Below are positions 5,829-54,884 of a DNA stretch of 64,000 bases, in pieces. Source of the stretch: Vicinamibacteria bacterium. Its GTDB lineage: Bacteria > Acidobacteriota > Vicinamibacteria > Vicinamibacterales > JAENWD01. Position 1 is the stretch's first letter. The number at the start of each line of letters is the position of its first letter. The position numbers and the translations under genes were made by a program. The stretch is taken from contig CAVRDA010000021.1 of the NCBI GenBank assembly GCA_963719755.1, positions 431,403 through 495,402 on the forward strand, read 5' to 3'. The notes under the pieces are model-generated. The model was given only the letters and a program-made list of their open reading frames with translations. It was not told the origin of the DNA and ran no database searches.

Positions 5829-5864
5829 GGCCTTCGGCGTTCAGCCTTCAGCCTTCAGACGGCC
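5829..5864. repeat. heptamer ladder GCCTTCG GCGTTCA GCCTTCA GCCTTCA GACGGCC between two convergent stop codons
   Basis: Read directly. The plus-gene stop is TAG 5824-5826. The minus-gene stop (5855-5857) lies inside the last GCCTTCA unit. Confidence 0.75.
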
Positions 5865-6336
5865 ACGGTCTTCACGGCACCCGCACGCGTCGCGGCTTCC
5901 ACCTCCACCAGCCGTCCGGACGTGACCTCGTACAGATACCCGTAGATCGGAATCGTCGCCGGCACCAGCGGATGCTGCCGGATCCGCGTCACGTCGTCGG
6001 CCACCGCGCCCGCCTGGTCCGCGATCGTGTGCCACTCGATGTCGTCGCCCGCGATCGATCCGGGACCCGTGCCGACATCCTTGAAGCCTTCCGCGGTGAG
6101 CTCCGCCGTCTCGAGGCTGTTGCGCAGCAGGACCCGGATGACGTCGTTGGTGAAGAACTCCATGCCGCAGTTGGTGTGGTGGACGACGAACCATTCGCGG
6201 GTCCCGAGCAGCTTGTATGAGATCACCAGCGATCGGATCGCGTCGTCGGTGGCCCGGCCGCCGGCGTTGACGGATCACATGCGCGTCGCCCTCGCAGGAA
6301 CGGCCTGCGGCTAGTCGTTGCTGTTGGCGCTGCCAT
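5855..6336 (-). pseudogene. beta-class carbonic anhydrase-like gene, N-terminally truncated and frame-broken
   Basis: EGDAHVIR / [36 protein letters not shown] matches the beta-CA core. There is no room for the N-terminal CxDxR zinc-ligand motif before the upstream gene stop at 6311. An extra C near 6275 shifts the frame. Confidence 0.5.
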
Positions 6337-7235
6337 GACCGGCGTACTTCCGCTCGCCGGCGGTGACGGCGATCGGAAGTCTGTTCTGCCGCGGCGGCAG
6401 CGGGCATGTCGTGTGCGGGTTGTAGGCACACGGCGGGTTGTAGGCACGGTTGAAGTCGACGACGACTGCGCCGGACGCATCTGGGGGATCGGTGTAGAGG
6501 AAGCGGATGCGGTAAGTGAGATCGCCTGCCGTCCGATCGCTGAAGATCAGCCACAGCCGCCCGCGCGCCGCTTTCAGCGCTACGAGCCTGACCACCGTGC
6601 CGTTCACGGCAGCCTCGACCTCGCCGGGGCTCTGCATCGTCTCGACGTCGCCGAGGATGTTCTGGATCTCGACGTTGCGCGGTGTGTCGTATGGCACCAG
6701 CCGCCCGGCGATGCGCCACTTCGGGTCGACGGCAAACCAGCGCAGGCCGGTGAATCCGCGGCGGTAGGGGCTCTCGGGATCGCGCAGGCGGACGCCAAGC
6801 CGCCCGCCGCTCGGGTGGAGCTGCAGCGTGATTCGGCCGATCGTCAGCCGATCGGCCGGCGTGTCTGCGGCTGCGTTCGACGGCAGCGAGCGTGACCGGC
6901 CCGCCGACGGCGCGCCCGTTGAGAGAAGTCGCCACACCTGCCGCAGGCTCGAATCGCACGCGGCCGCCCGCGTAGATCATTCGTCCGGCTGCCGCCGGCG
7001 CGGCCTCGTCTGGCAGCACGACGTCCGCCCGGGAATCTGCGCCGACGGTGTTCACGCCGTCGTGCAGGAAGTAGAGCCCGGCAACCGACAGCCAGCCGTC
7101 CTCCTTCTTGAGGTCTGCCTCGCGCGTCTCTCGCCAGCGCTCGACCTCGGCAGCCCAATCCGCGGGCGGTGAATCAGGCAGCGCCGACGTCAGGGCGGAC
7201 AGGAGCAGAGAGAGCAGTGCAAACGTAGGCAACAT
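6311..7235 (-). CDS. DUF1684 domain protein; frame broken near 6895
   Basis: The signal peptide MLPTFALLSLLLSA and the WLSVAGLYFL part (from ATG 7235) are in a different frame from ORF 6311..6937 (RWFAVDPKWRIAGRL, NRAYNPPCAYNPHTTCPLPP). Confidence 0.75.
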
Positions 7236-12089: not shown

Positions 12090-13297
12090 ATGCCCGTCAT
12101 CTGCCGGCACTTCGGCGTCTGCGGCGGCTGCCAGACGCAGGACGTGCCGTACCCGGAGCAGCTGTCGCGGAAGCGGCGCTGGCTCGACGACCTGCTGCGG
12201 GATGCGGTTGGACGGCGCGCACCGCGCGTCGAGCCGGTCACCGCGATGCCGGTGGACGCGACCGGGACGCCGTCCCACTTCAGGCACAAGGCGGCGTTCG
12301 TGTTCGGTCCGGCCGACGCGCACGGACGCGGCCTGGTGATGGGCCACTACGCGCTCAAGTCGAGGCGCGTCGTGCCAGTCGACGAGTGTCCCGTCCACAG
12401 CAGCCGCGCCAACCGGCTCGCCTTCGCGCTGCGCGATCACCTCGCGCGCGCACAGGTCCGCGCGGCCGGCCCGCGGCTCGACGGCATCCTGCGTCACGTC
12501 GTCGTCCGGACGACGAGTGACGATCGCGAGGCGCTGGTGCTGCTCGTCGTGACGCGCAACGACAAGTCGCTCCGCAAGCCGCTGCGCGCCTTCCTGGCCT
12601 CTGCCGATCGGCCCGACGGGCTGTTCGTGACAGACGCACGATCGCGACGACCCGTACCTCGTCGGCGACACGGTGCTTCGGATCGACGGCCGCGGCCAGA
12701 TCAGGGAGCGCGGGCTGGGCCCGACGTTCCTCATCTCGCCGACGGCGTTCTTTCAGACCAATCCTCTTGCGGCGGCGGCGCTCGTGGATGCCGTGGTCGC
12801 CGAGGCGAGCGGGGCCTGGCGGCGATTCGTTGTCGGTGCTGGATCTCTATGCGGGGAGCGGCCTCTTCGCCCTGCCGCTGGCAGTCGCCGGCCACTCCGT
12901 GACAGCCGTCGAAGAGAACCGCGCGGCGGTTGCCGACGGGATCGCCAACGCTCGGCTCAACAGGATTCCCGCGCCGCGGCTGTCGTTCGTCCACGCGAGG
13001 ACGGAGGACTATCTCCGACGGGCCCGCTCGCGCGGCGTGCAGCGCGTGGTGCTCGATCCGCCCCGCCAGGGCGCCGCAGCTGCGGTGATTCAGCGCCTGT
13101 TCCAGGACCTTGCGCCGCCACGCGTCCTCTACGTGTCGTGCAATCCCCAGGCGTTCGCCGGCGAGCTGCCGGTGATGCTCGACGCCGGCTACCGGCTGGC
13201 GCGCGTGCAGCCGGTGGACATGTTTCCGCACACCGACCACGTCGAGCTCGTCGCGACGCTGGATCGGCAGGACTTGCGACTTCGTCAGAACACGTAG
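12090..13297 (+). CDS. RumA/TrmA-family RNA (uracil-5)-methyltransferase; two frame breaks (near 12638 and 12815)
   Basis: N-terminal Cys cluster CRHFGVCGGCQ, FFQTN, VLDLYAGSGLF, DPPRQG and VSCNP motifs are spread over three frames. Confidence 0.75.
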
Positions 13298-16328: not shown

Positions 16329-16333
16329 CACCA

Positions 16334-16425
16334 GCCTTCAGCCTTCGGTCCTCAACCTTCGGTCTTCGGCGGATTGCCCGGATTCATGCCGAGTCTGGAA
16401 ATTCCTGAAGGTGACTGGCGAAGGC
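16334..16425. repeat. heptamer-ladder palindrome, GCCTTCR dialect (5 units, about 35-nt spacer, 3 complementary units)
   Basis: GCCTTCA GCCTTCG GTCCTCA ACCTTCG GTCTTCG ... CCTGAAGG TGACTGG CGAAGGC, read directly downstream of TGA 16326-16328. Confidence 0.7.
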
Positions 16426-16506
16426 CATTGGACAGACCTCCTGCAAGCCGTGCTGGCGTCGGGGCGCGAGACGGTGTACTTAGGTGGACTACCCTGTAAC
16501 GACACT

Positions 16507-19153
16507 ATGACTGACCGTGCAACGCCCGCCGATGACACGTTGTGGAGCCTCGATGAGATCACCCGGCTGGTCTCCGAGAGCGGCAACGCGGCTGAAACCC
16601 TCTCCAACGTCGTTCGGCTGATCCAGCAGCGGTTCGGCACCGACGTCTGCTCGGTCTACCTGCTCGAGCCCGACCGATCGACGCTCGTCCTCGCGGCGAC
16701 CATCGGCCTCAGGCCCGAGAGCGTCGGCAAGGTGCGGATGCGGCTGACGGAGGGCCTCGTCGGCCTCGTCGGCGAGAAGATGCAGCCGCAGGTCATCGAG
16801 CACGCGACGACGCATCCGCGCTTCAAGTACTTCCGTGAGGCCGGCGAGGACGCGTACCAGTCGTTCCTCGGCGTGCCGCTCGAGGATCGCGGACTGCTGC
16901 AGGGCGTGCTGGTCGTCCAGACGCTCGAGCCGCGGGCCTTCGGGGCCGACGCCGTGCAGCGGCTCGAAGCGGCCGGCGCGCAGCTGGCTCCGATCGTCAG
17001 CGAGGCGCGGACACTGGGCCTGTTCGTCGCGCCGGCGCACCAGCGCCTGTCGGAGCTGGCGCAGAACCTGTGGTGGAGCTGGGACAAGGACGCGACGAAC
17101 CTGTTCCGCGACCTGGATCCGGTGCTGTGGCGCCAGCTGGCCCACAACCCGGTCGCGCTGCTCCAGCGCATCGACATCGACGACCTGCAGGAGCGCGCAT
17201 CGCAGCTCGCGCTGCACAGCCGGATCAACTACGCCTACCGCCGGATGCAGGAGTACCTGTCGTCGAAGCGGACGTGGGGCGTCCAGCATGCCGGCGTGCT
17301 GTGGGCGCGGCCGGTGGCGTATTTCTCCGCCGAGTTCGGCCTGCACGAGTCGATTCCGATTTACTCCGGCGGCCTGGGGATTCTCGCCGGCGACCACATC
17401 AAGGGCGCCTCCGATCTCGGCGTGCCGCTCGTCGGCGTCGGCCTCTACTACCAGCAGGCGGTACTTCCGGCAGGTGCTGGACAGCGAGTGCTACCAGCAG
17501 GAGGAGTACATCGACGTCGACCGCCGGCTCCTGCCGATGCAGCCGGCCACCGACGCGGCCGGCGAGCCCGTGATCGTGACCATCGACACGCGGTCCGCGT
17601 CCATTGCCGCACGCGTGTGGAAGCTCGCGGTGGGCCGCAACACGCTGCTGCTGCTCGATTCCGACGTCGACGGGAACCGGCCGGAGGATCGCCAGCTCAC
17701 CGCGCGGCTGTATGGCGGCGACGACTGGGTCCGCATCCGCCAGGAGCTGCTGCTGGGCGTCGGCGGCGTGCGCGCGCTCAAGGCACTGGGCATCTCGCCT
17801 GGCGTCGCGCACCTCAACGAGGGGCATAGCGCCTTTGCGGCGCTCGAACTGGTTCGTGATCGGATGACGCTGGAAGGCATCGGGGTGGAGGAGGCGATTC
17901 GCCGCGTCGCCCCGCAGGTCGTCTTCACGACGCACACACCGGTGCCGGCCGGGCACGACCGCTTCACGCCGGAGCTGATCGAGGAGCACCTCGGCCCGCT
18001 GCGCGACCAGCTGGGCATGGCGCCGGACCAGCTGCTGTCACTCGGCCGGGAGAATTCGGGCAATCACAGCGAGACGTTCTGCATGACCGTGCTCGCCCTG
18101 AAGCTTTCGCGCAAGGCGAACGCGGTCTCCTCGCTGCACGGGCAGGTCTCGCGCGCGATGTGGAGCGGGCTCTACGGCGGCGACGACGCGCGCGTGCCGA
18201 TCGGCCACATCACCAACGGCGTGCACGTGCAGACGTGGCTCGCGCCGCAGATGCACGACGTCTACGATCGCCACCTCAAGACGGACTGGCCCGATCGCTG
18301 CGCCGAGCCCGCGTGCTGGGACGACATCGAGCACATCGACGACGGCGAGCTGTGGGAAGTGCACCAGGCGCTGAAGGCCCGGCTGATCGACTTCGTGCGC
18401 CGGCGCACGGCGAACGCGGCGGAACGGCGCGGCGAGTCGGCCGAGAACATCGCGCAGCTGAAGCGCGCGCTGAGCCTGGACGCGCTGACCATCGGCTTCG
18501 CCCGCCGCTTCGCGACCTACAAGCGCGCCAACCTGATCCTGCGCGATCTGGAGGCCGTCGCCGGGCTGGTCAACGACCCGCAGACGCCGATCCAGTTCGT
18601 CTTCGCCGGCAAGGCGCACCCGCGCGATCGCCCGGGCAAGGAGATGCTCCAGCAGATCGCGCGGCTCAACCGCGATCCGCGCTTTGCCGGCAAGGTTCTC
18701 TTCGTCGAGGACTACGACATCAACGTCGGCCGTCACCTGGTGCAGGGCGTGGACGTGTGGCTCAACAACCCGCGACGGCCGCTCGAGGCCTCCGGCACGA
18801 GCGGCCAGAAGGTCGTCCTCAACGGCGGCCTGAACCTCTCGGTGCTCGACGGCTGGTGGGCCGAGGCCTACGACGGGCTCAACGGCTTCGGCATCGGCGC
18901 CGGCGAGACCCACTCGGACCTCGAGGTCCACGATCGCCGCGACGGCGAGGCGCTGCTCCGTGTGCTCCGCGACGAGGTCGTGCCGATCTACTACGACCGC
19001 GACCAGGACGGCCTGCCGCGCGCCTGGATCGCGCGCATGAAGCGCGCGATTCGGACGCTTGGCTGGCGCTTCAGCGCCGGCCGCATGGTCGCCGACTACG
19101 CGCTCGGCTCGTACATCCCTGCCGCCGGGGGAACGAGCAGGGATAACAGATAG
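16507..19153 (+). CDS. glgP: alpha-glucan phosphorylase (GT35) with an N-terminal GAF-like domain; frame broken near 17459
   Basis: A GAF-like segment ([22 protein letters not shown]...GLVGLVGE) is followed by [31 protein letters not shown] and EASGTSGQK. ORFs 16411..17829 and 16835..19153 join here. ATG 16507 is preferred over GTG 16411, which lies inside the repeat. Confidence 0.85.
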
Positions 19154-19162
19154 CGCCACGGA

Positions 19163-19284
19163 GTGTCCATGCTGGGTGCTGGGTGCTGGGTGCTGCGTGC
19201 GGTGCTGAGTGCCGAGTGCCGAGTGCTGAGTGAGTGCTGAGTTTGCGTGCCCTGGCACGTAGCACGCAGCACGCAGCACTCACT
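19163..19284. repeat. heptamer-ladder palindrome, GTGCTGA dialect (about 12 units left arm, 4 units right arm)
   Basis: ATGCTGG GTGCTGG GTGCTGG GTGCTGC GTGCG GTGCTGA GTGCCGA GTGCCGA GTGCTGA GTGA GTGCTGA GTTTGC GTGCC ctg GGCAC GTAGCAC GCAGCAC GCAGCAC TCAC. It lies between the glgP stop (19153) and the TetR stop (19280). Confidence 0.85.
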
Positions 19285-19868
19285 TGAGATGCGGTTTCAA
19301 CACCGCGTCCAGATCTGAGAGCATCCACTTCGCGGCGCTGCCCTCCCGGTAGATCGCCCACGTCATCATCGAGCCGCTGACCGCGACCTCGATGAGGCGC
19401 GCCAGCTGGCCTGGCCGCACGCCGCGCGCCAGCTCTCCTTCTTCCACCGCAGCCTTGACGAGCGCCGCCAGCTGGCGGCGCGTCGCCTTCGCATGCGTCA
19501 GCAGCGCCTGATACAGCGCGGGATCGGTCAGGTCGAGCTGCAGGTAGGCCAGGTTGCGCGCGAGGGCCTCGGGCGATTCGGCCAGCCGCGCGTGGCAGCG
19601 CACGTACTCGCGCAAGGCCGAGAGCGGCGAGGGATGCGCGCGCCGCAGCGCGGCGAACATCTCGTCGGCCGAGCCGGCAAACCGCGACGACATCGCCCGC
19701 AGCAGCTGCTGCTTCGACCCGAAGCGCTGCACCAAGCGCGCCGGCCGTGAGGCCCGCCTCCTGGGCAATCGCCGCCAGCGTCAGCTCCGCCGGACCCACC
19801 CGCGACATCACCCGCGTCGCTGCGCCAAACACCTCGTCGTCTGAAGCCTTGCGGGGTCGTGGACTCAT
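19280..19868 (-). CDS. TetR/AcrR family transcriptional regulator; frame broken near 19745
   Basis: The HTH segment VGPAELTLAAIAQEAGLTAGAL (from ATG 19868) joins ORF 19280..19768 (VQRFGSKQQLL...). Confidence 0.8.
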
Positions 19869-19874
19869 GGCCGG

Positions 19875-19928
19875 TTGACAGTTTCTAAAGACACGTTTAG
19901 TATCGATAACTATACGGACGTTTAGTAT
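19875..19928 (+). promoter_or_regulatory. sigma70-like promoter TTGACA-17 nt-TAGTAT plus an 11-nt direct repeat ACGTTTAGTAT (x2); candidate TetR operator region
   Basis: TTGACA 19875-19880 and TAGTAT 19898-19903. ACGTTTAGTAT occurs at 19893-19903 and 19918-19928. The near-palindrome TAGTATCGATAACTA lies between the two copies. Confidence 0.45.
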
Positions 19929-20014
19929 ATGCCGCTGGCCTTCCGAAATGTCGCAGATGCGGAGCCAATCCGCGCAATCCCTGAAGACCGAAGGCCGAGG
20001 ACTGAGGGGCGATC

Positions 20015-20923
20015 ATGGGCAGCTTGAACGGACGCGTCGCCGTGGTCGCCGGTGCCAGCCGCGGCGCGGGACGGGGCATCGCTCTCGCGCTCGGCGCCGC
20101 CGGGTGCACGGTCTACGCCGTGGGCCGCACCAGGCGCGGCGGCCCGCCGCCGCCCGACGGGGCGCCGGGGACAATCGACGAGACCGCCGAGGAGATTTCC
20201 GCCCGCGGCGGCCAGGGCATCGCGAGCCGGGCGGACTGCACCGACGCCGAACAGGCGGCCGAGGTCTTCGCACAGGTGCGTCGCGATCATGGCCGGCTCG
20301 ACGTGCTGGCCAACGCCGTCTGGGGCATGAGCGACGCGATGGCGTCGCCCGAGGATCTGCAGGCCGCCTGGAGCCGGCCGTTCTGGGAGCCGTCGCCGGG
20401 GCCGGAGTGGCGGTCGATGATGATGGCCGGGCCGGGCGCGTATTACCTTATGAGCACGTTCGCCGTGCCGCTCATGATCGAGACCCGCGGCGGGCTCATC
20501 GTCGGCGTCACCGACGGCATCGTCGACAACGGCAAGGGCGAGGACGCCGGGCAGATCGCCGCGCAGCCCGGCTACGGCGGCCAACTGGTGTGGGATCTCG
20601 CGCACCACTGCATCAATCGGCTGATGTATGCGATGAGCGTCGAAGCCAGGAAGAAGAAGATCGCCGTCGTGACGCTGATGCCCGGGTTCATGCAGACCGA
20701 GCGCGTGATGCGCCACCTGACGACCGACGAGTTGAAGCGTGCGTTCCGGTTCGACCTCAGCGAGTCGACGGAGTATATCGGGCGCGCGGTCGCGGCACTG
20801 GCCGCCGATCGCAAGGTGATGCGCCACAGCGGCAAGATCCATTTCGTCGCCGATCTTGCGCGGGAGTACGGGTTCACCGATGTCGATGGACGACAGATCC
20901 CGCGCTTCAAGCCGTTCGGCTGA
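20015..20923 (+). CDS. SDR family oxidoreductase
   Basis: Intact 302-aa ORF with GASRGAGRGIA (TGxxxGxG-type motif). It is divergent from the TetR gene. Confidence 0.8.
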   Translation: MGSLNGRVAVVAGASRGAGRGIALALGAAGCTVYAVGRTRRGGPPPPDGAPGTIDETAEEISARGGQGIASRADCTDAEQAAEVFAQVRRDHGRLDVLANAVWGMSDAMASPEDLQAAWSRPFWEPSPGPEWRSMMMAGPGAYYLMSTFAVPLMIETRGGLIVGVTDGIVDNGKGEDAGQIAAQPGYGGQLVWDLAHHCINRLMYAMSVEARKKKIAVVTLMPGFMQTERVMRHLTTDELKRAFRFDLSESTEYIGRAVAALAADRKVMRHSGKIHFVADLAREYGFTDVDGRQIPRFKPFG

Positions 20924-35631: not shown

Positions 35632-36228
35632 ATGACGACCACCGCTGATTTCTTCATCAACCGGGTACTGGACGCGATGCCTTCGTCGACGCCGCGGCGT
35701 CAGCAGATTGCGCTGGAGCTGCGCGGCCACATCGAGGAGCGCCTGGCCGCCGGCCTGCCGCTCGACGAGGTCCTGCACCAGTTGGGCGATCCGCGGTCGC
35801 TGGCCGAGTCGTACCTGTCGGCCGTCCCGCTGGTGGCCGGGTCTTTCTGGGCGCGCGCCGTGGCGCGCGTCGTCGACTACGCCGTATCGGTCGCCGTAGT
35901 GGCGCCGTTCGGGGTCGCAGTCTGGCTGACGAGCGACTCGAAGCTCTTTCCCCTCTGGCTCTTCGCGTACATCTTCACCGCCAGCCTGATGATCGCCGCG
36001 TATCCAATCGTCGCCGAATATCGGTACGGCAAGACCTGGGGCAAGCACCTGATGGGCCTGCGCGTCGTCCGCGAATCGGGCGCGAGGATCAGCCTCGGGC
36101 AGTCGATCGTCCGGCAGCTGCCGGTGTTCCTGCAGGTGATCTGGATCGACGCGCTGTTCGCGCTCTTCACCGACAAGAGCCAGCGCGCGTTCGAGCTGCT
36201 GTCGAAAACGCGGGTGGTGAGGGTGTAG
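35632..36228 (+). CDS. PadR-associated membrane protein with a C-terminal RDD domain
   Basis: Intact 198-aa ORF. N-terminal cytoplasmic helix region (IALELRGHIEERLAAG), then RDD-type TM segments (YRYGKTWGKHLMGLRVV). Confidence 0.65.
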   Translation: MTTTADFFINRVLDAMPSSTPRRQQIALELRGHIEERLAAGLPLDEVLHQLGDPRSLAESYLSAVPLVAGSFWARAVARVVDYAVSVAVVAPFGVAVWLTSDSKLFPLWLFAYIFTASLMIAAYPIVAEYRYGKTWGKHLMGLRVVRESGARISLGQSIVRQLPVFLQVIWIDALFALFTDKSQRAFELLSKTRVVRV

Positions 36229-36342
36229 GGTTGTGGGGTTGTAGGGTTGTAGGGTTGTAGGGTTGTAGGTTGTAGGGTTGTAAGGTCGTCAGGGCGCGAA
36301 ATCCACGCCCCTACAACCCCACAACCCAACAACCCACGACCC
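36222..36342. repeat. heptamer/octamer-ladder palindrome, GGGTTGTA dialect, G-quadruplex-capable on both strands
   Basis: GGGTTGT GGGGTTGTA (GGGTTGTA)x3 GGTTGTA GGGTTGTA AGG...GGGCG cgaaatcca CGCCC CTACAACCCC ACAACCC AACAACCC ACGACCC. It lies between TAG 36226-36228 and the minus-gene stop at 36343. Confidence 0.85.
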
Positions 36343-38872
36343 TTATTCGTACCGCAGCGCCATGATCGGGTTGATCTGGCTGGCGCGGCGCGCCGGGATC
36401 AAGCCGGCCGCGGTCGAGACCAGCGTCAGGAGCACGACCGTCGCGATGGCGATGCCCGGATCGTGGGCCTCGATGCCGTAGAGCTGAGACGCGACGTAGC
36501 GGCCAAGTCCCAGGGCAGCCGGGATACCGACTGCGAGGCCGATGACCAGCAGCAGCAGCACCTCCCGCATCACCATCCAGGTCAACTGCGACGGCTGCGC
36601 GCCGAGCGCGAGGCGGATCCCAAGCTCCTTCCGGCGCCGCGCGACGACGAACGCCATCACGCCATAGAGGCCAATCGACGCCAGCAGCGTCGCCAGCAGG
36701 CCGAAGCCGGCCGACAGCAGCGCCACCAGCCGATCGCTCAGCAGCGTCTCGTCCAACTGCCCCTGCAGCGTCTTCAGGCTGTAGACGGGCATTGCCGGAT
36801 CGAGCCGGCGCACCTCGTTGCGAATGAGGCTGTAGGCGCCTGCCGACGACGTCGCAGTGCGCATGTAGATGGCGCTGCTGCCGCGGCCCCAGGCGGGAAT
36901 GAACACCTGGCGGCGGACGCCTTCGCGCGGCCCCTCGTAGAGCGAGTCGGCCACCATCCCGATGATCTCGATGTTCATCTTCGTGTCGGGCCCGTCGCCC
37001 CAGCCAAGCCGCTTGCCGATGGGGCTGGCGCCCTTGAAGAAGTGCCGCGCGAATTTCTGGTTCACGATCGCCACGCGCGATGCAGGTCAGGTTTCGTGTC
37101 GTCGAACTGGTCCCGTCCTTCCGAATCGCGGAAGTCGCGCCCCTCGAGGATGGGGATCTGCATCGTCTTGAAGTAGCCCGGCGACAGGGCGTTCATGAAC
37201 GCCTGCATGTCCTCGCCGTCGCCGGCCTTGTGACCCTCGACCGACATCGTGCTGTCCCATTCGTCGCCGCTCAGGATCGAGACAGAGGCCTGGCCCGCCG
37301 ACTTCACGCCCGGCGCCGACCGGAGGTTCTGGAGCAGGTCGCGATAGAACAGCGCGCCGCGCTCGTCGGTGTAGCCGTTCAGCGCCGGCGAGAGCTGGAA
37401 GGTCACGAGGTTGTCGAGGTCGACGCCCGGATCCGTGGTCCGCAGGTTCTGCAGGCTTCGGACGAACAGGCCGGCGCCGAAGAGCAGGAGGAAGCTGAGC
37501 GCGACTTGCGCGGTGACCAGCCCCTTGCGAAGGAACAGCGACCCGCCGGCTCCCGCGATGGAACCGACCGTGTCCTTCAGCGTCGTCCAGGGGTCGGGCC
37601 GGCTCGCGCGCAACGCCGGCAACAGGCCGAAGACGACGCCGGTCGCCAGGGTGAGAGCGAACGTGAAGCCCGAGGATCCGCAGGTCCGGCTCGGCCTGGA
37701 TCTGCAGCGGGTTGCTCTCTGACGGGATGAGCGCCAGCAGGCCGCGCGTGAGCGCGACGGCGACGAACACGCCGAGCACTCCGCCAATGGCCGAGAGCAG
37801 CAGGCTTTCGACCAGCAGCTGCCGCACCAGGCGGCCCCTGGTCGCGCCGAGCGACAGCCGGACCGCGATCTCGCGCTGGCGCATGAACCCTCGGGCGATG
37901 AGCAGGTTGGCGACGTTGGCGCAGGCGATGAGCAGCACCAGGCCGACCATGCACATCAGGACGACGAGCGCGGTGGAGAAGTCGTTGCGCAGGCTGGAAT
38001 AGCCGATGTCCGCCTTCTCGACGTGCAGCGTCCCCTTCAGGAACTGCTCCTTCGAGTAGGCAGACCAATCCTTGGCCGCCGGCAGCGTCGCTTCGTACTT
38101 CCGGATTTGCGTGAACAGGCCCTGCATCGGCGGCTGAGCGCTTTCCACGGTCTGACCCGGCTTCAGCCGCGCGAACACCTGCACCCAGCGCGAGCGCCGA
38201 TCGTCGGCCCGCATCCAGGTCCATTCGGGCAGCACCACCGGCTTCATCAGGATCGGCACGCGGATCTGCGGCGACCGCGCCGGGTCGAGGCCGTCGAATC
38301 CGGCCGCCGAGACCCCGACGATGGTCATCGGGTAGTTGTTGATCTGCACTTTCTTGCCGATGACGCCGGGGTCGCGGGCGAAGCGCGACACCCAGTAGTC
38401 GTACGAGAGGACAGCGACGGGGTGGCCGTTGTAGACCTGGTCGTCTTCCTTCGAGCTGAGCACGCGCCCGATGGCGGGCCTGACGCCCAGCATCGAGAAG
38501 TAGTTGCCCGACACCATCTCGGCATCGAGCCGCTCGGTCTGGTTGTCGACCGCAAACGACACCGAGACCAGCCGGCGGGCGATGACCTGCGAGAGCGGCG
38601 CCGCCTTCTGCTGGTAGTCCTGGTAGATGGGATACGAGTGCATCCGCGATCCCATGTTGCTGCCGTTGTGGTTGCCGCGCTGGATGAGCATCACCAGCTC
38701 TTCCGGGGCGCGCACGGGCAGCTTCCTCAGCAGGATCTGGTCGATCAGCGTGAAGATCGCCGTATTGGCGCCGATGCCGAGTCCCAGCGACAGCGTCGCG
38801 ACGATGGCAAAGAGCGGGCTGCGATCGCAGGCCGCGGAGCGCGAAGCGGAGGTCGGCCAGAAGGGAAGTCAT
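36343..38872 (-). CDS. ADOP-family duplicated MacB/FtsX-type permease (no adjacent padR); three frame breaks (near 38815, 37690, 37080)
   Basis: MTSLLADLRFALRGLRSQP..GIGANTAIF N-terminus and two FtsX-type modules (ACANVANLLIARG...; ...GIRLALGAQ...). ORFs 37577, 37087, 37062 and 36343 join here. Confidence 0.8.
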
Positions 38873-40351: not shown

Positions 40352-40354
40352 AAC

Positions 40355-40519
40355 GTGCTGCGTGCTTTGTGCACCGTGCCACGTGCGGTGCTGCGTGCTT
40401 CGTGCTTCGTGCACGTGCGTTCTCCGTGCAGTGCCCGTGCGGTGCTGCGGGCACGAAGCACCGCACGCGGCACGTGGCACCAGCACCGCACGCGCACGCA
40501 GCACCGCACGCAGCACGTG
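40355..40519. repeat. heptamer-ladder palindrome, GTGCTGC dialect (about 95-nt left arm, about 70-nt right arm) with nested perfect stems
   Basis: cgtgcggtgct (40436-40446) pairs with agcaccgcacg (40457-40467). cgtgcggtgctgcg (40382-40395) pairs with cgcagcaccgcacg (40497-40510). It lies between the fabF stop and the convergent stop at 40529. Confidence 0.9.
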
Positions 40520-40528
40520 GCGAACGCC

Positions 40529-45463: not shown

Positions 45464-45476
45464 AAAAATTATGTCA

Positions 45477-45670
45477 GTGCCGCGTGCTTCGTGCCATGTG
45501 CCTCGTCCGTGCTTCGTGCCTCGTGCCGCGTCCGGTGCTTCGTGCCTGGTCCCTTCGTGCAGAGCCGCCGCCCCGGGGACCGCAGCCGGCACGCGGCCCG
45601 CACCCAGCACCCGGCCCATGACACCGCACGCGGCACCGCACCCAGCACGCGGCACCAAGCACTCAGCACC
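45477..45670. repeat. heptamer-ladder palindrome, GTGCTTC dialect (about 85-nt arms) in a divergent intergenic region
   Basis: GTGCCGC GTGCTTC GTGCCAT GTGCCTC GTCC GTGCTTC GTGCCTC GTGCCGC ... then GCAC GCGGCCC GCAC CCAGCAC ... GCGGCAC CGCAC CCAGCAC GCGGCAC CAAGCAC TCAGCAC. Confidence 0.85.
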
Positions 45671-45751
45671 TGCCAGGGTGCTCCCTCTACTTGTGTTGTC
45701 GAATGGCACCCGCCCGAATCGACACCGCCAGACGCCGGTCGCAAAGATTTC

Positions 45752-54743: not shown

Positions 54744-54757
54744 GCAAGGGGAGGACG

Positions 54758-54879
54758 TGTAGGGATTGTAGGGTTGTAGGTTGTGAGGTTGTAGGGTGGC
54801 CGTTGTAGGGTTGTGCCGTAGGTAGGGAGATACCCCAGTCCTCCCTACAACCCCACGACCCTCACAACCCCACAACCCT
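54758..54879. repeat. heptamer/octamer-ladder palindrome, GGGTTGTA dialect
   Basis: TGTAGGGAT TGTAGGGT TGTAGGT TGTGAGGT TGTAGGG..TTGTAGGGT... with core GTAGGGAG (54822-54829) pairing CTCCCTAC (54841-54848), then ACAACCCCACGACCCTCACAACCCCACAACCC. Confidence 0.85.
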
Positions 54880-54884
54880 CTTCC

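Follow-up and report, generated by a model that had tools for sequence, protein, structure and literature searches.

The glgP–tetR element and its alleles

We analysed a stretch of 64,000 nucleotides (nt) of DNA, called the window here, from an acidobacterium of the Vicinamibacteria type, and we focused on a short element between two convergent genes. One gene encodes a GAF-domain alpha-glucan phosphorylase ('glgP') and the other a TetR-family regulator (tetR). The 126 nt between their stop codons are made up of two facing runs of the 7-base unit GTGCYGN. The genes and the parts of the element are as follows (L081 and L082 are same-species relatives that are introduced below):

16411–19153, plus strand: GAF-domain alpha-glucan phosphorylase gene ('glgP'), Pfam Phosphorylase; stop TAG at 19151–19153
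19154–19168, plus strand: spacer, 15 nt of non-repeat sequence from the glgP stop to the first unit, part of which is conserved in L081 and L082
19169–19251, plus strand: left array, 13 head-to-tail GTGCYGN units; G/T-rich strand in the glgP sense
19247–19258, no strand: palindrome apex, GTGCC-CT-GGCAC; GCCCTGGCAC is common to the window and L082 alleles
19254–19283, minus strand: right array, 4–5 inverted units, GGCAC GTAGCAC GCAGCAC GCAGCAC TCAC
19280–19868, minus strand: TetR-family regulator gene, TetR_N domain; stop TGA at 19280–19282; intact (195 amino acids) in L081

The left array reads ATGCTGG GTGCTGG GTGCTGG GTGCTGC GTGCG GTGCTGA GTGCCGA GTGCCGA GTGCTGA GTGA GTGCTGA GTTTGC GTGCC, and contains nine full heptamers and four truncated or variant units (GTGCG, GTGA, GTTTGC and GTGCC). 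On the minus strand, the right array reads TGA GTGCTGC GTGCTGC GTGCTAC GTGCC. It begins directly at the tetR stop, and the TGA of that stop (TCA on the plus strand, 19280–19282) sits inside the last right-array unit. This is the two-armed ladder that an earlier note on this DNA had described, with the tetR stop in its last right-arm unit; we count 13 left units and four to five right units. Tandem Repeats Finder reported a period of 7, with 9.3 copies at 19170–19232 and 3.6 copies at 19255–19279. The pattern GTGCYKN, taken three times in a row with at most one mismatch, matched the window 14 times compared with 0.01 matches expected from shuffles, and these matches fell at three loci with the same unit type. 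The element is a real, non-random repeat, an imperfect head-to-tail iteration of 7 nt that goes beyond chance. Its right arm is 76–93% complementary to several different registers of the left arm.

Several other identities were rejected. A 265-amino-acid open reading frame (ORF) on the minus strand (19071–19868) runs through the array, but it is an artefact of a frameshift in tetR and does not indicate a coding repeat. A CRISPR-like array does not fit a period of 7 nt and the absence of spacers. No tRNA, tmRNA or known RNA family was found in the window: Rfam gave no match at gathering thresholds across its whole length, only sub-threshold resemblances to eukaryotic microRNAs and small nucleolar RNAs (E 0.07–0.7).

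RNA of the plus strand of the window allele was predicted to fold at −70.8 kcal/mol (z-score −2.68; 2 of 200 shuffles as stable) and RNA of the minus strand at −52.4 kcal/mol (z-score −2.03; 5 of 200 shuffles as stable). Folding both strands against shuffles was a check proposed in the earlier note; both strands were better than most shuffles, by a modest margin. The minimum-energy fold of the plus strand consists of two hairpins, in which the G/U-rich left arm pairs with itself by G-U wobble. In partition-function calculations for plus-strand RNA, the proximal left units are the main partner of the 28-nt right arm; for minus-strand RNA and for plus-strand DNA, its main partner is the distal GTGCTGG units. 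The alternative hairpin registers that had been expected from the excess of left-arm units are thus seen in the calculations, where the preferred partner of the right arm changes with the strand and the molecule.

Close relatives of the locus were obtained by a search with the glgP protein: L081 is from an ENA assembly, and L082 and L083 are from two JGI metagenomes. Their flanks are 96–97% identical to the window at the DNA level. A scan of GTDB genomes with glgP gave only relatives at 76% identity or less, of which the closest are Vicinamibacteria (Acidobacteriota), and a conserved 21-mer of the glgP 3' end had no match in the metagenome scan. The two stop codons are separated by 77 nt in L081 and by 126 nt in the window; in L082 and L083 the interval measures 165 nt. 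Hence the length polymorphism that the earlier note had suggested looking for in related strains does exist: copy number varies among close relatives, while the locus and the type of the repeat are kept. Two independent metagenomes (L082 and L083) contain identical copies of the 165-nt allele, and a third sample has the same gene layout and spacing.

The 165-nt allele is predicted to form one long, near-symmetric hairpin (−103.8 kcal/mol; z-scores of −6.2 on the plus strand and −3.7 on the minus strand). The arms of L082 mirror each other's irregularities: counted from the loop, the third unit of each arm is the rare truncated GTCA. When the order of units in the L082 right arm was shuffled, the fold weakened (z-score −1.9; 13 of 300 shuffles as stable). 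The window and L082 have homologous left arms of similar length (13 and 11 units), whereas their right arms differ (four and nine units); therefore the asymmetry of the window allele is mainly a matter of a shorter right arm. This looks like loss from the right arm and not the expansion of the left arm that the earlier note had considered. In L081, the apex and nearly all of the right arm have been lost, and the remaining sequence folds no better than shuffles (z-score of about −1.2). From this comparison, we infer that unequal arms are a strain-specific, partly decayed state and not a design; nothing indicates that the asymmetry itself has a function.

The tetranucleotide GTAG, which the earlier note had tentatively linked to the 5' ends of REP elements, is a C-to-T variant of the unit. 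It lies in the right arm in the window (19259–19262), at the arm junction in L081 and in both arms in L082, and this placement does not bear out the REP connection. A G-quadruplex at the locus was also rejected. The window allele contains three GGG runs, whereas the L081 and L082 alleles contain a single one; none of them has four G3 tracts, and the tracts are not conserved among alleles.

The same gene end was compared in more distant lineages. In L086 (82% protein identity), a compact symmetric GTGCTGA/GTGCCGA hairpin follows the orthologous stop (z-scores −6.7 and −4.7). It is kept all the same although the downstream gene there is different and co-directional. The G+C-rich hairpin next to the stop is strong in L082 and L086; in the window allele it is present, with a fold that is only marginally more stable than shuffles (z-scores −2.7 and −2.0). 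Hairpins built from different units stand right after the orthologous stop in L085 (GGGGCATA), L002 (GGGATCC/GGGGCTC) and L011 (CGAGGCTA). In total, five of nine lineages carry such an element at this gene end, and L084, L001, L004 and L074 do not. The use of different units at one gene end in different lineages argues for a site-specific need or propensity.

Long GGGATYC/GGGATTC heptamer arrays were also observed elsewhere in two of these acidobacterial relatives, at 12327–12497 in L002 and at 6229–6464 and 13288–13331 in L004. Their units are of the family that is known from Xanthomonas and Nostoc. One of the L004 arrays has about 20 units and is followed by AGCTGGA and CTGACAG arrays.

Distribution of the unit and comparison with known repeat systems

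The glgP–tetR element is not alone in the window. Four larger palindromes of the same general build were found:

36212–36345, no strand: GGGTTGTA (about nine copies) facing ACAACCC (about four copies), between the convergent stops of an RDD-family gene and an FtsX-permease gene; RNA z-score −5.2
40352–40520, no strand: GTGCTGC/GTGCTTC facing GCACGCA, between the convergent stops of a ketoacyl synthase gene and an FMN reductase gene; RNA −119.9 kcal/mol, z-score −6.4
45474–45672, no strand: GTGCYTC facing GCACCCA, between apparently divergent FtsX/MacB permease and PQQ dehydrogenase genes; RNA z-score −3.9
54755–54882, no strand: TGTAGGGT facing CCCCACAA, located upstream of a PadR gene, with co-directional minus-strand genes on both sides; RNA z-score −6.3

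Three of the five large elements, the glgP–tetR one included, exactly fill the space between convergent stops, one is co-directional and one is apparently divergent. The glgP–tetR element has the weakest fold of the five (−3.9 to −6.4 for the others). The structure described in the earlier note is real, but it does not stand by itself: it belongs to a dispersed family, of which it is a weak member. As judged from these sequences, the element is a hairpin element that stands at the phosphorylase gene 3' end in all same-species relatives and in L086, and it belongs to a dispersed heptamer/octamer 'ladder palindrome' family that is common in this Vicinamibacteria-type genome.

The palindromes at 36212–36345 and 54755–54882 contain telomere-like GGGTTGTA octamer arrays of up to about nine units, which face ACAACCC arrays and have a G3 tract in each 8-nt period. 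Both palindromes combine hairpin potential (z-scores −5.2 and −6.3) with G-quadruplex potential, and would have the four G3 tracts.

A scan with the 17-mer GTGCTGAGTGCCGAGTG found the unit in at least 120 metagenome contigs, and we analysed its position at 80 loci with GC contents of 39–74%. An inverted (TCAGCAC)n arm was present downstream of the array, so that the G-rich arm comes first, at 22–23 loci, and upstream at two; these are inverted pairs like the glgP–tetR arms. At 29 loci, the start of the G-rich array falls between −21 and +20 nt relative to a sense-gene stop. At several loci the distance from the ORF end to the array start is −7, −14 or −21, which means that the array itself often supplies the stop; owing to the 7-nt period, the TGA of the unit occurs in all three frames. 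At 16 loci the array lies upstream of the start of an antisense gene. Among loci with both flanks classified, the two-armed ones comprised seven convergent, eight co-directional and no divergent cases, and the one-armed ones seven convergent, 13 co-directional and one divergent. With only 1 of 36 classified loci between divergent genes, nearly every element therefore adjoins at least one gene 3' end. We rejected the idea of two independent arrays, one for each gene, because two-armed loci are co-directional as often as convergent (eight vs seven) and the L082 arms are mirror copies. The idea that the G-rich arm is usually the longer one was also set aside, because a 17-mer search favours the longer arm.

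The unit is also found in very different hosts. Contig L154 (44% GC) is from the Nostocales, as its arginine decarboxylase shares 94% identity with the Nostoc sp. protein, and it carries a two-armed GTGCTGA element between co-directional genes. Among IMG/VR viral contigs, 27 contain (GTGCTGA)3 and 10 contain the 17-mer, a total of 37, with GC contents from 30% to 69%. The same unit thus recurs within the window (three loci) and beyond it, in at least 120 metagenome contigs, in 37 viral contigs and in a Nostocales contig. No GTGCYGA dimer was found in 1.6 Mb of Terriglobia and Planctomycetota loci. Our searches of the accessible literature turned up neither the GTGCTGA unit nor any account of such repeats in Acidobacteria.

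Three individual loci showed additional features. The 40.8-kb IMG/VR contig 3300005578_000008 (from the set L207–L242, predicted viral) has at least seven (GTGCTGA)n arrays, some of which are paired with GACTCAG-type arms. In L143, a metagenome contig of 39% GC, a 5-unit GTGCTGA/GTGCCGA array (1212–1246) lies inside a 920-amino-acid minus-strand ORF; it is stop-free when read as TCAGCAC and looks like a rare in-gene copy. In L152 (about 340–450, 17-mer on the plus strand), a GTGCTGA array stands 8 nt after a sequence ending in ..GGTTCAAATCCCGCCGCCCCGACCA that is tRNA-like by eye. The GTGCTGA family therefore probably also follows RNA genes.

The closest precedent that we found is the convergent pairs of GGGNATC heptamers in Xanthomonas and Nostoc, and the glgP–tetR element is the same kind of object. 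GGGNATC arrays are intergenic and depleted between divergent genes (Rehm et al. 2015, PMC4692102). They are found near stop codons when on the sense strand and upstream of genes when on the antisense strand, and GGGAATC/GGGNATC units form 70–75 convergent inverted pairs per Xanthomonas genome, which are potential stem-loops (PMC4692102). Species differ in the length of the arrays but retain the type, single or paired, and the unit is shared by distant phyla (PMC4692102). Like them, the elements described here are imperfect 7-nt head-to-tail arrays at many loci per genome, they occur as convergent pairs, and related GGGATYC arrays are present in L002 and L004. They differ in that the unit is GTGCYGN, in that the glgP–tetR locus is without four G3 tracts and therefore lacks the G-quadruplex property that defines the class, in that the host is a Vicinamibacteria-type acidobacterium, and in that the arrays are longer and the arms clearly unequal.

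Cyanobacteria are known for short tandemly repeated repetitive (STRR) sequences, of which several heptamer families occur per genome as intergenic tandem arrays, classically direct and not as paired hairpins. Mazel et al. reportedly described such heptanucleotide arrays in 1990, with the units CCCCAGT, TTGGTCA and CAACAGT. The several heptamer families and the intergenic tandem arrays are shared with the present case, and the Nostocales contig L154 carries the GTGCTGA unit itself. The difference is that GTGCYGN elements are often paired hairpins, whereas STRR arrays are classically direct.

A third heptamer, TAACTGA, has been described in Beggiatoaceae, Cyanobacteria and Bacteroidetes; it has stops in all three frames and is patchily distributed across phyla (MacGregor 2015, PMC4679880). 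Like GTGCTGA, it ends in CTGA, gives three-frame stops, is mostly intergenic and sometimes overlaps the end of the upstream ORF, and the means of its spread are not known (PMC4679880). In contrast, its sets are short (2–6 copies), with one inverted case, and lie mostly just upstream of gene starts, whereas GTGCYGN arrays are mostly at 3' ends and often paired.

REP, BIME and REPIN sequences resemble the present elements in being intergenic, hairpin-forming, highly repeated and often located between convergent genes, and roles in termination and mRNA stabilization have been proposed for them (PMC3116915, PMC3333891). REPs, however, are conserved imperfect palindromes of fixed length with a 5' GTAG, and they are mobilized by RAYT proteins (PMC3116915, PMC3333891). 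GTGCYGN elements consist of tandem units in variable number, and their GTAG is not fixed in position. We know of no link between RAYTs and GTGCYGN arrays. An element of the REP/REPIN or MITE type, moved by a RAYT-type Y1 transposase and bearing the right-arm GTAG as its hallmark, would be consistent with the recurrence of the same unit types at several loci of the genome and with the presence of the unit in distant phyla and viral contigs. It would also fit the fixed polarity of each family (G-rich arm first for GTGCTGA and GGGTTGTA, C-rich arm first for AGCCTTC and CCAACTC) and the TGCGCAGA..TCTGCGCA-like apical stem that the AGCCTTC family shares at different loci. We consider this explanation highly improbable. 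No conserved non-repeat core, loop or terminus was found among the GTGCTGA-unit loci (the 80 loci and also the three in the window), the unit number is variable where a fixed conserved palindrome of about 20–40 nt would be expected, and GTAG is at different positions in the three alleles and not at a fixed terminus. In addition, no target-site duplication or empty-site allele was seen among the compared alleles, and no Y1-transposase domain was present among the neighbouring proteins scanned or called.

A second alternative is that the array is a repeated protein-binding platform and not a hairpin. For instance, unpaired (UCAGCAC)n on the tetR transcript could be a loading site for Rho, or the array could bind an RNA-binding protein of the S1, Csp or CsrA type. 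About 50–60 nt of the C-rich arm would indeed be unpaired on the minus strand, where only four units are partnered. One-armed arrays are common, the unit is conserved irrespective of genome GC, and MacGregor proposed protein binding for TAACTGA (PMC4679880). However, with respect to the upstream gene, eight one-armed arrays are in sense and five in antisense orientation, so that no consistent RNA sequence is presented, the asymmetry is not conserved among alleles, and no candidate binding protein was identified. We find this explanation very unlikely.

The heptamer, with a GC content of 64%, stands at gene ends in Acidobacteriota of 69% GC, in Nostocales of 44% GC, in metagenome contigs of 39–74% GC and in viral contigs of as little as 30% GC. 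A bolder hypothesis, which we hold to be unlikely, is that GTGCYGA arrays are a sequence-specific element in many bacteria. A unit that is kept regardless of genome composition would imply either that arrays are actively made or spread, by a mobile agent or templated synthesis, or that conserved machinery recognizes them, for example Rho, an RNase or RNA polymerase. In high-GC Vicinamibacteria, the paired form would on this view be the main two-way, U-tract-less terminator, renewed at the same gene ends with interchangeable units.

A proposed role in both 3' untranslated regions

Based on the position and predicted folding of the element, we propose a model for its function and its variation. 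Both convergent genes would be transcribed into the element, which would then constitute the 3' untranslated regions of both. The two arrays would pair into a long imperfect RNA hairpin, and the G/U-rich arm on the glgP strand may also fold on itself through G-U pairs. Although it lacks a U-tract, this hairpin could stop or pause transcription arriving from both sides, protect the 3' ends from exonucleases, or do both. Unit number would shift by replication slippage and by deletions inside the palindrome, and we propose that these two processes account for the unequal arms and the degenerate registers. We lean, with some reserve, towards this reading of the element as a slippage-prone heptamer-repeat hairpin in both 3' untranslated regions that serves as a U-tract-less terminator or as a 3'-end protector.

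Hairpin terminators without a U-tract have been reported for high-GC bacteria. The element resembles an intrinsic terminator in that a G+C-rich hairpin lies directly downstream of the stops, where it is placed to act on both convergent transcripts; it differs in the missing U-tract and in a stem that consists of tandem units and extends over tens of base pairs. Across positions 1–60000 of the window, sites with a hairpin plus a T-run numbered 16 compared with about 22 expected from shuffles, which is no enrichment, and none was at an obvious gene end. Thus, this genome seems to be without canonical intrinsic terminators.

A number of observations weigh against the proposed role. We infer termination or stabilization only from position and fold. 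As a structure, the window allele is only marginally better than its base composition predicts, and compared with shuffles of its unit order it shows no gain and no mirror signal (z-score −0.5). There is no U-tract 3' of either arm (the tails after the stem are CTTGAGATG on the plus strand and TGGACACTCC on the minus strand) and no terminator-like site in 18500–20000. The decayed L081 allele persists, and therefore the hairpin must be dispensable at least in the short term. The palindrome at 45474–45672 lies in an apparently divergent region. Among the 80 metagenome loci, where ORF calls are rough (length and a filter on GC at third codon positions), about two thirds are one-armed, which makes a hairpin impossible, and the bias towards the G-rich arm first (22–23 vs 2) is not explained by a pure hairpin function. 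Nor does the hairpin model explain why the unit is conserved across genomes of 30–74% GC.

Alternatively, the arrays may be neutral or selfish simple-sequence repeats, generated by slippage or another repeat-generating process and tolerated only at gene 3' ends, with hairpin potential as a by-product. Arrays would be excluded from genes because the TGA of GTGCTGA falls in every reading frame, and from promoter regions because these tolerate insertions poorly. This is the main rival of the proposed role. We think it less probable, but still a real possibility, since most loci are one-armed and decayed alleles (L081 and the window itself) persist. The hypervariability of the locus, the lack of a mirror signal in the window right arm and the stops that are so often supplied by the array (−7, −14, −21) also speak for it, and the same argument has been made for TAACTGA repeats (PMC4679880). 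On the other hand, five of nine lineages keep a hairpin at this gene end, whether built from this unit or from another, and the irregular units of L082 are mirrored between its two arms. Most paired members have strong fold z-scores, and the maintenance of a 64%-GC unit in genomes of 30–44% GC is not explained by drift alone.

Knowledge of heptamer arrays at the ends of bacterial genes goes back to the cyanobacterial STRR sequences; descriptions from Xanthomonas and Beggiatoaceae followed later. Our analysis adds an undescribed unit, GTGCYGN, in a little-studied soil phylum; a within-species allelic series (symmetric, unequal-armed and apex-deleted) that shows how fast such elements change; one gene end that carries different units in different lineages; and one unit that is common to cyanobacteria and viral contigs of very different base composition. 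If it is true that the paired form is a U-tract-less terminator, it would help to explain termination in high-GC Acidobacteria, where no canonical terminators were seen. For practical purposes, loci of this kind are hypervariable markers of strains and are prone to assembly error.

Neighbouring genes and smaller repeats

The exact number of units in the window allele may be affected by assembly, because there are indels in both flanking genes. Compared with both L081 and L082, the window has one additional base at 17460, which splits the 881-amino-acid glgP protein into ORFs at 16411–17829 and 16835–19153, and one at 19734, which puts the helix-turn-helix and C-terminal parts of tetR in different frames, the stop at 19280–19282 being that of the C-terminal one. 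Two additional bases within 2.3 kb are either assembly indel errors or two fresh pseudogenes; small assembly errors in the window are likely from this comparison. Relatives of glgP that are 99% identical over the matched part have 881 amino acids with DUF3417, GAF and Phosphorylase domains, and the 559-amino-acid protein P0002 is 100% identical to the window glgP ORF.

In L082 (12793–12942) and L083, most of tetR and the start of the adjacent short-chain dehydrogenase gene (window 19412–20546) have been deleted, leaving a remnant of 29 amino acids. The regulator appears to be decaying in this species, as far as these alleles suggest.

Two smaller hairpins were found near the element:

16329–16425, no strand: small AGCCTTC/GAAGGCT hairpin, C-rich arm first, from the BBE oxidase stop to the glgP start; RNA z-score −2.4; longer in L082 (9812–9921)
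21915–22012, no strand: CGTCAGC/AGCCTTC-type hairpin with an apical TGCGCAGA..TCTGCGCA stem; RNA z-score −4.0; conserved in L081 (15386–15478)

Together with a further copy in L081 (13377–13462), these form a second family, AGCCTTC/CGTCAGC, with the C-rich arm first and with a length that varies among strains. Its similar apical stem at several loci makes it look more REPIN/MITE-like than the GTGCYGN family. One-armed arrays also occur in the window. One, at 1152–1249, has CCAACCTGA and AACCCGACGT units and lies in a divergent region upstream of a gene starting near 1272; another, at 5830–5858, has four copies of GCCTTCA between convergent stops.

Between tetR and the dehydrogenase gene (19875–20012), a sigma-70-like TTGACA-17-TAGTAT site overlaps a repeated, operator-like sequence of the ACGTTTAGTAT type. 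It is followed in the dehydrogenase leader by a small AGCCTTC/GAAGGCT ladder hairpin (about 19935–20010), which is longer in L081 (13370–13470).

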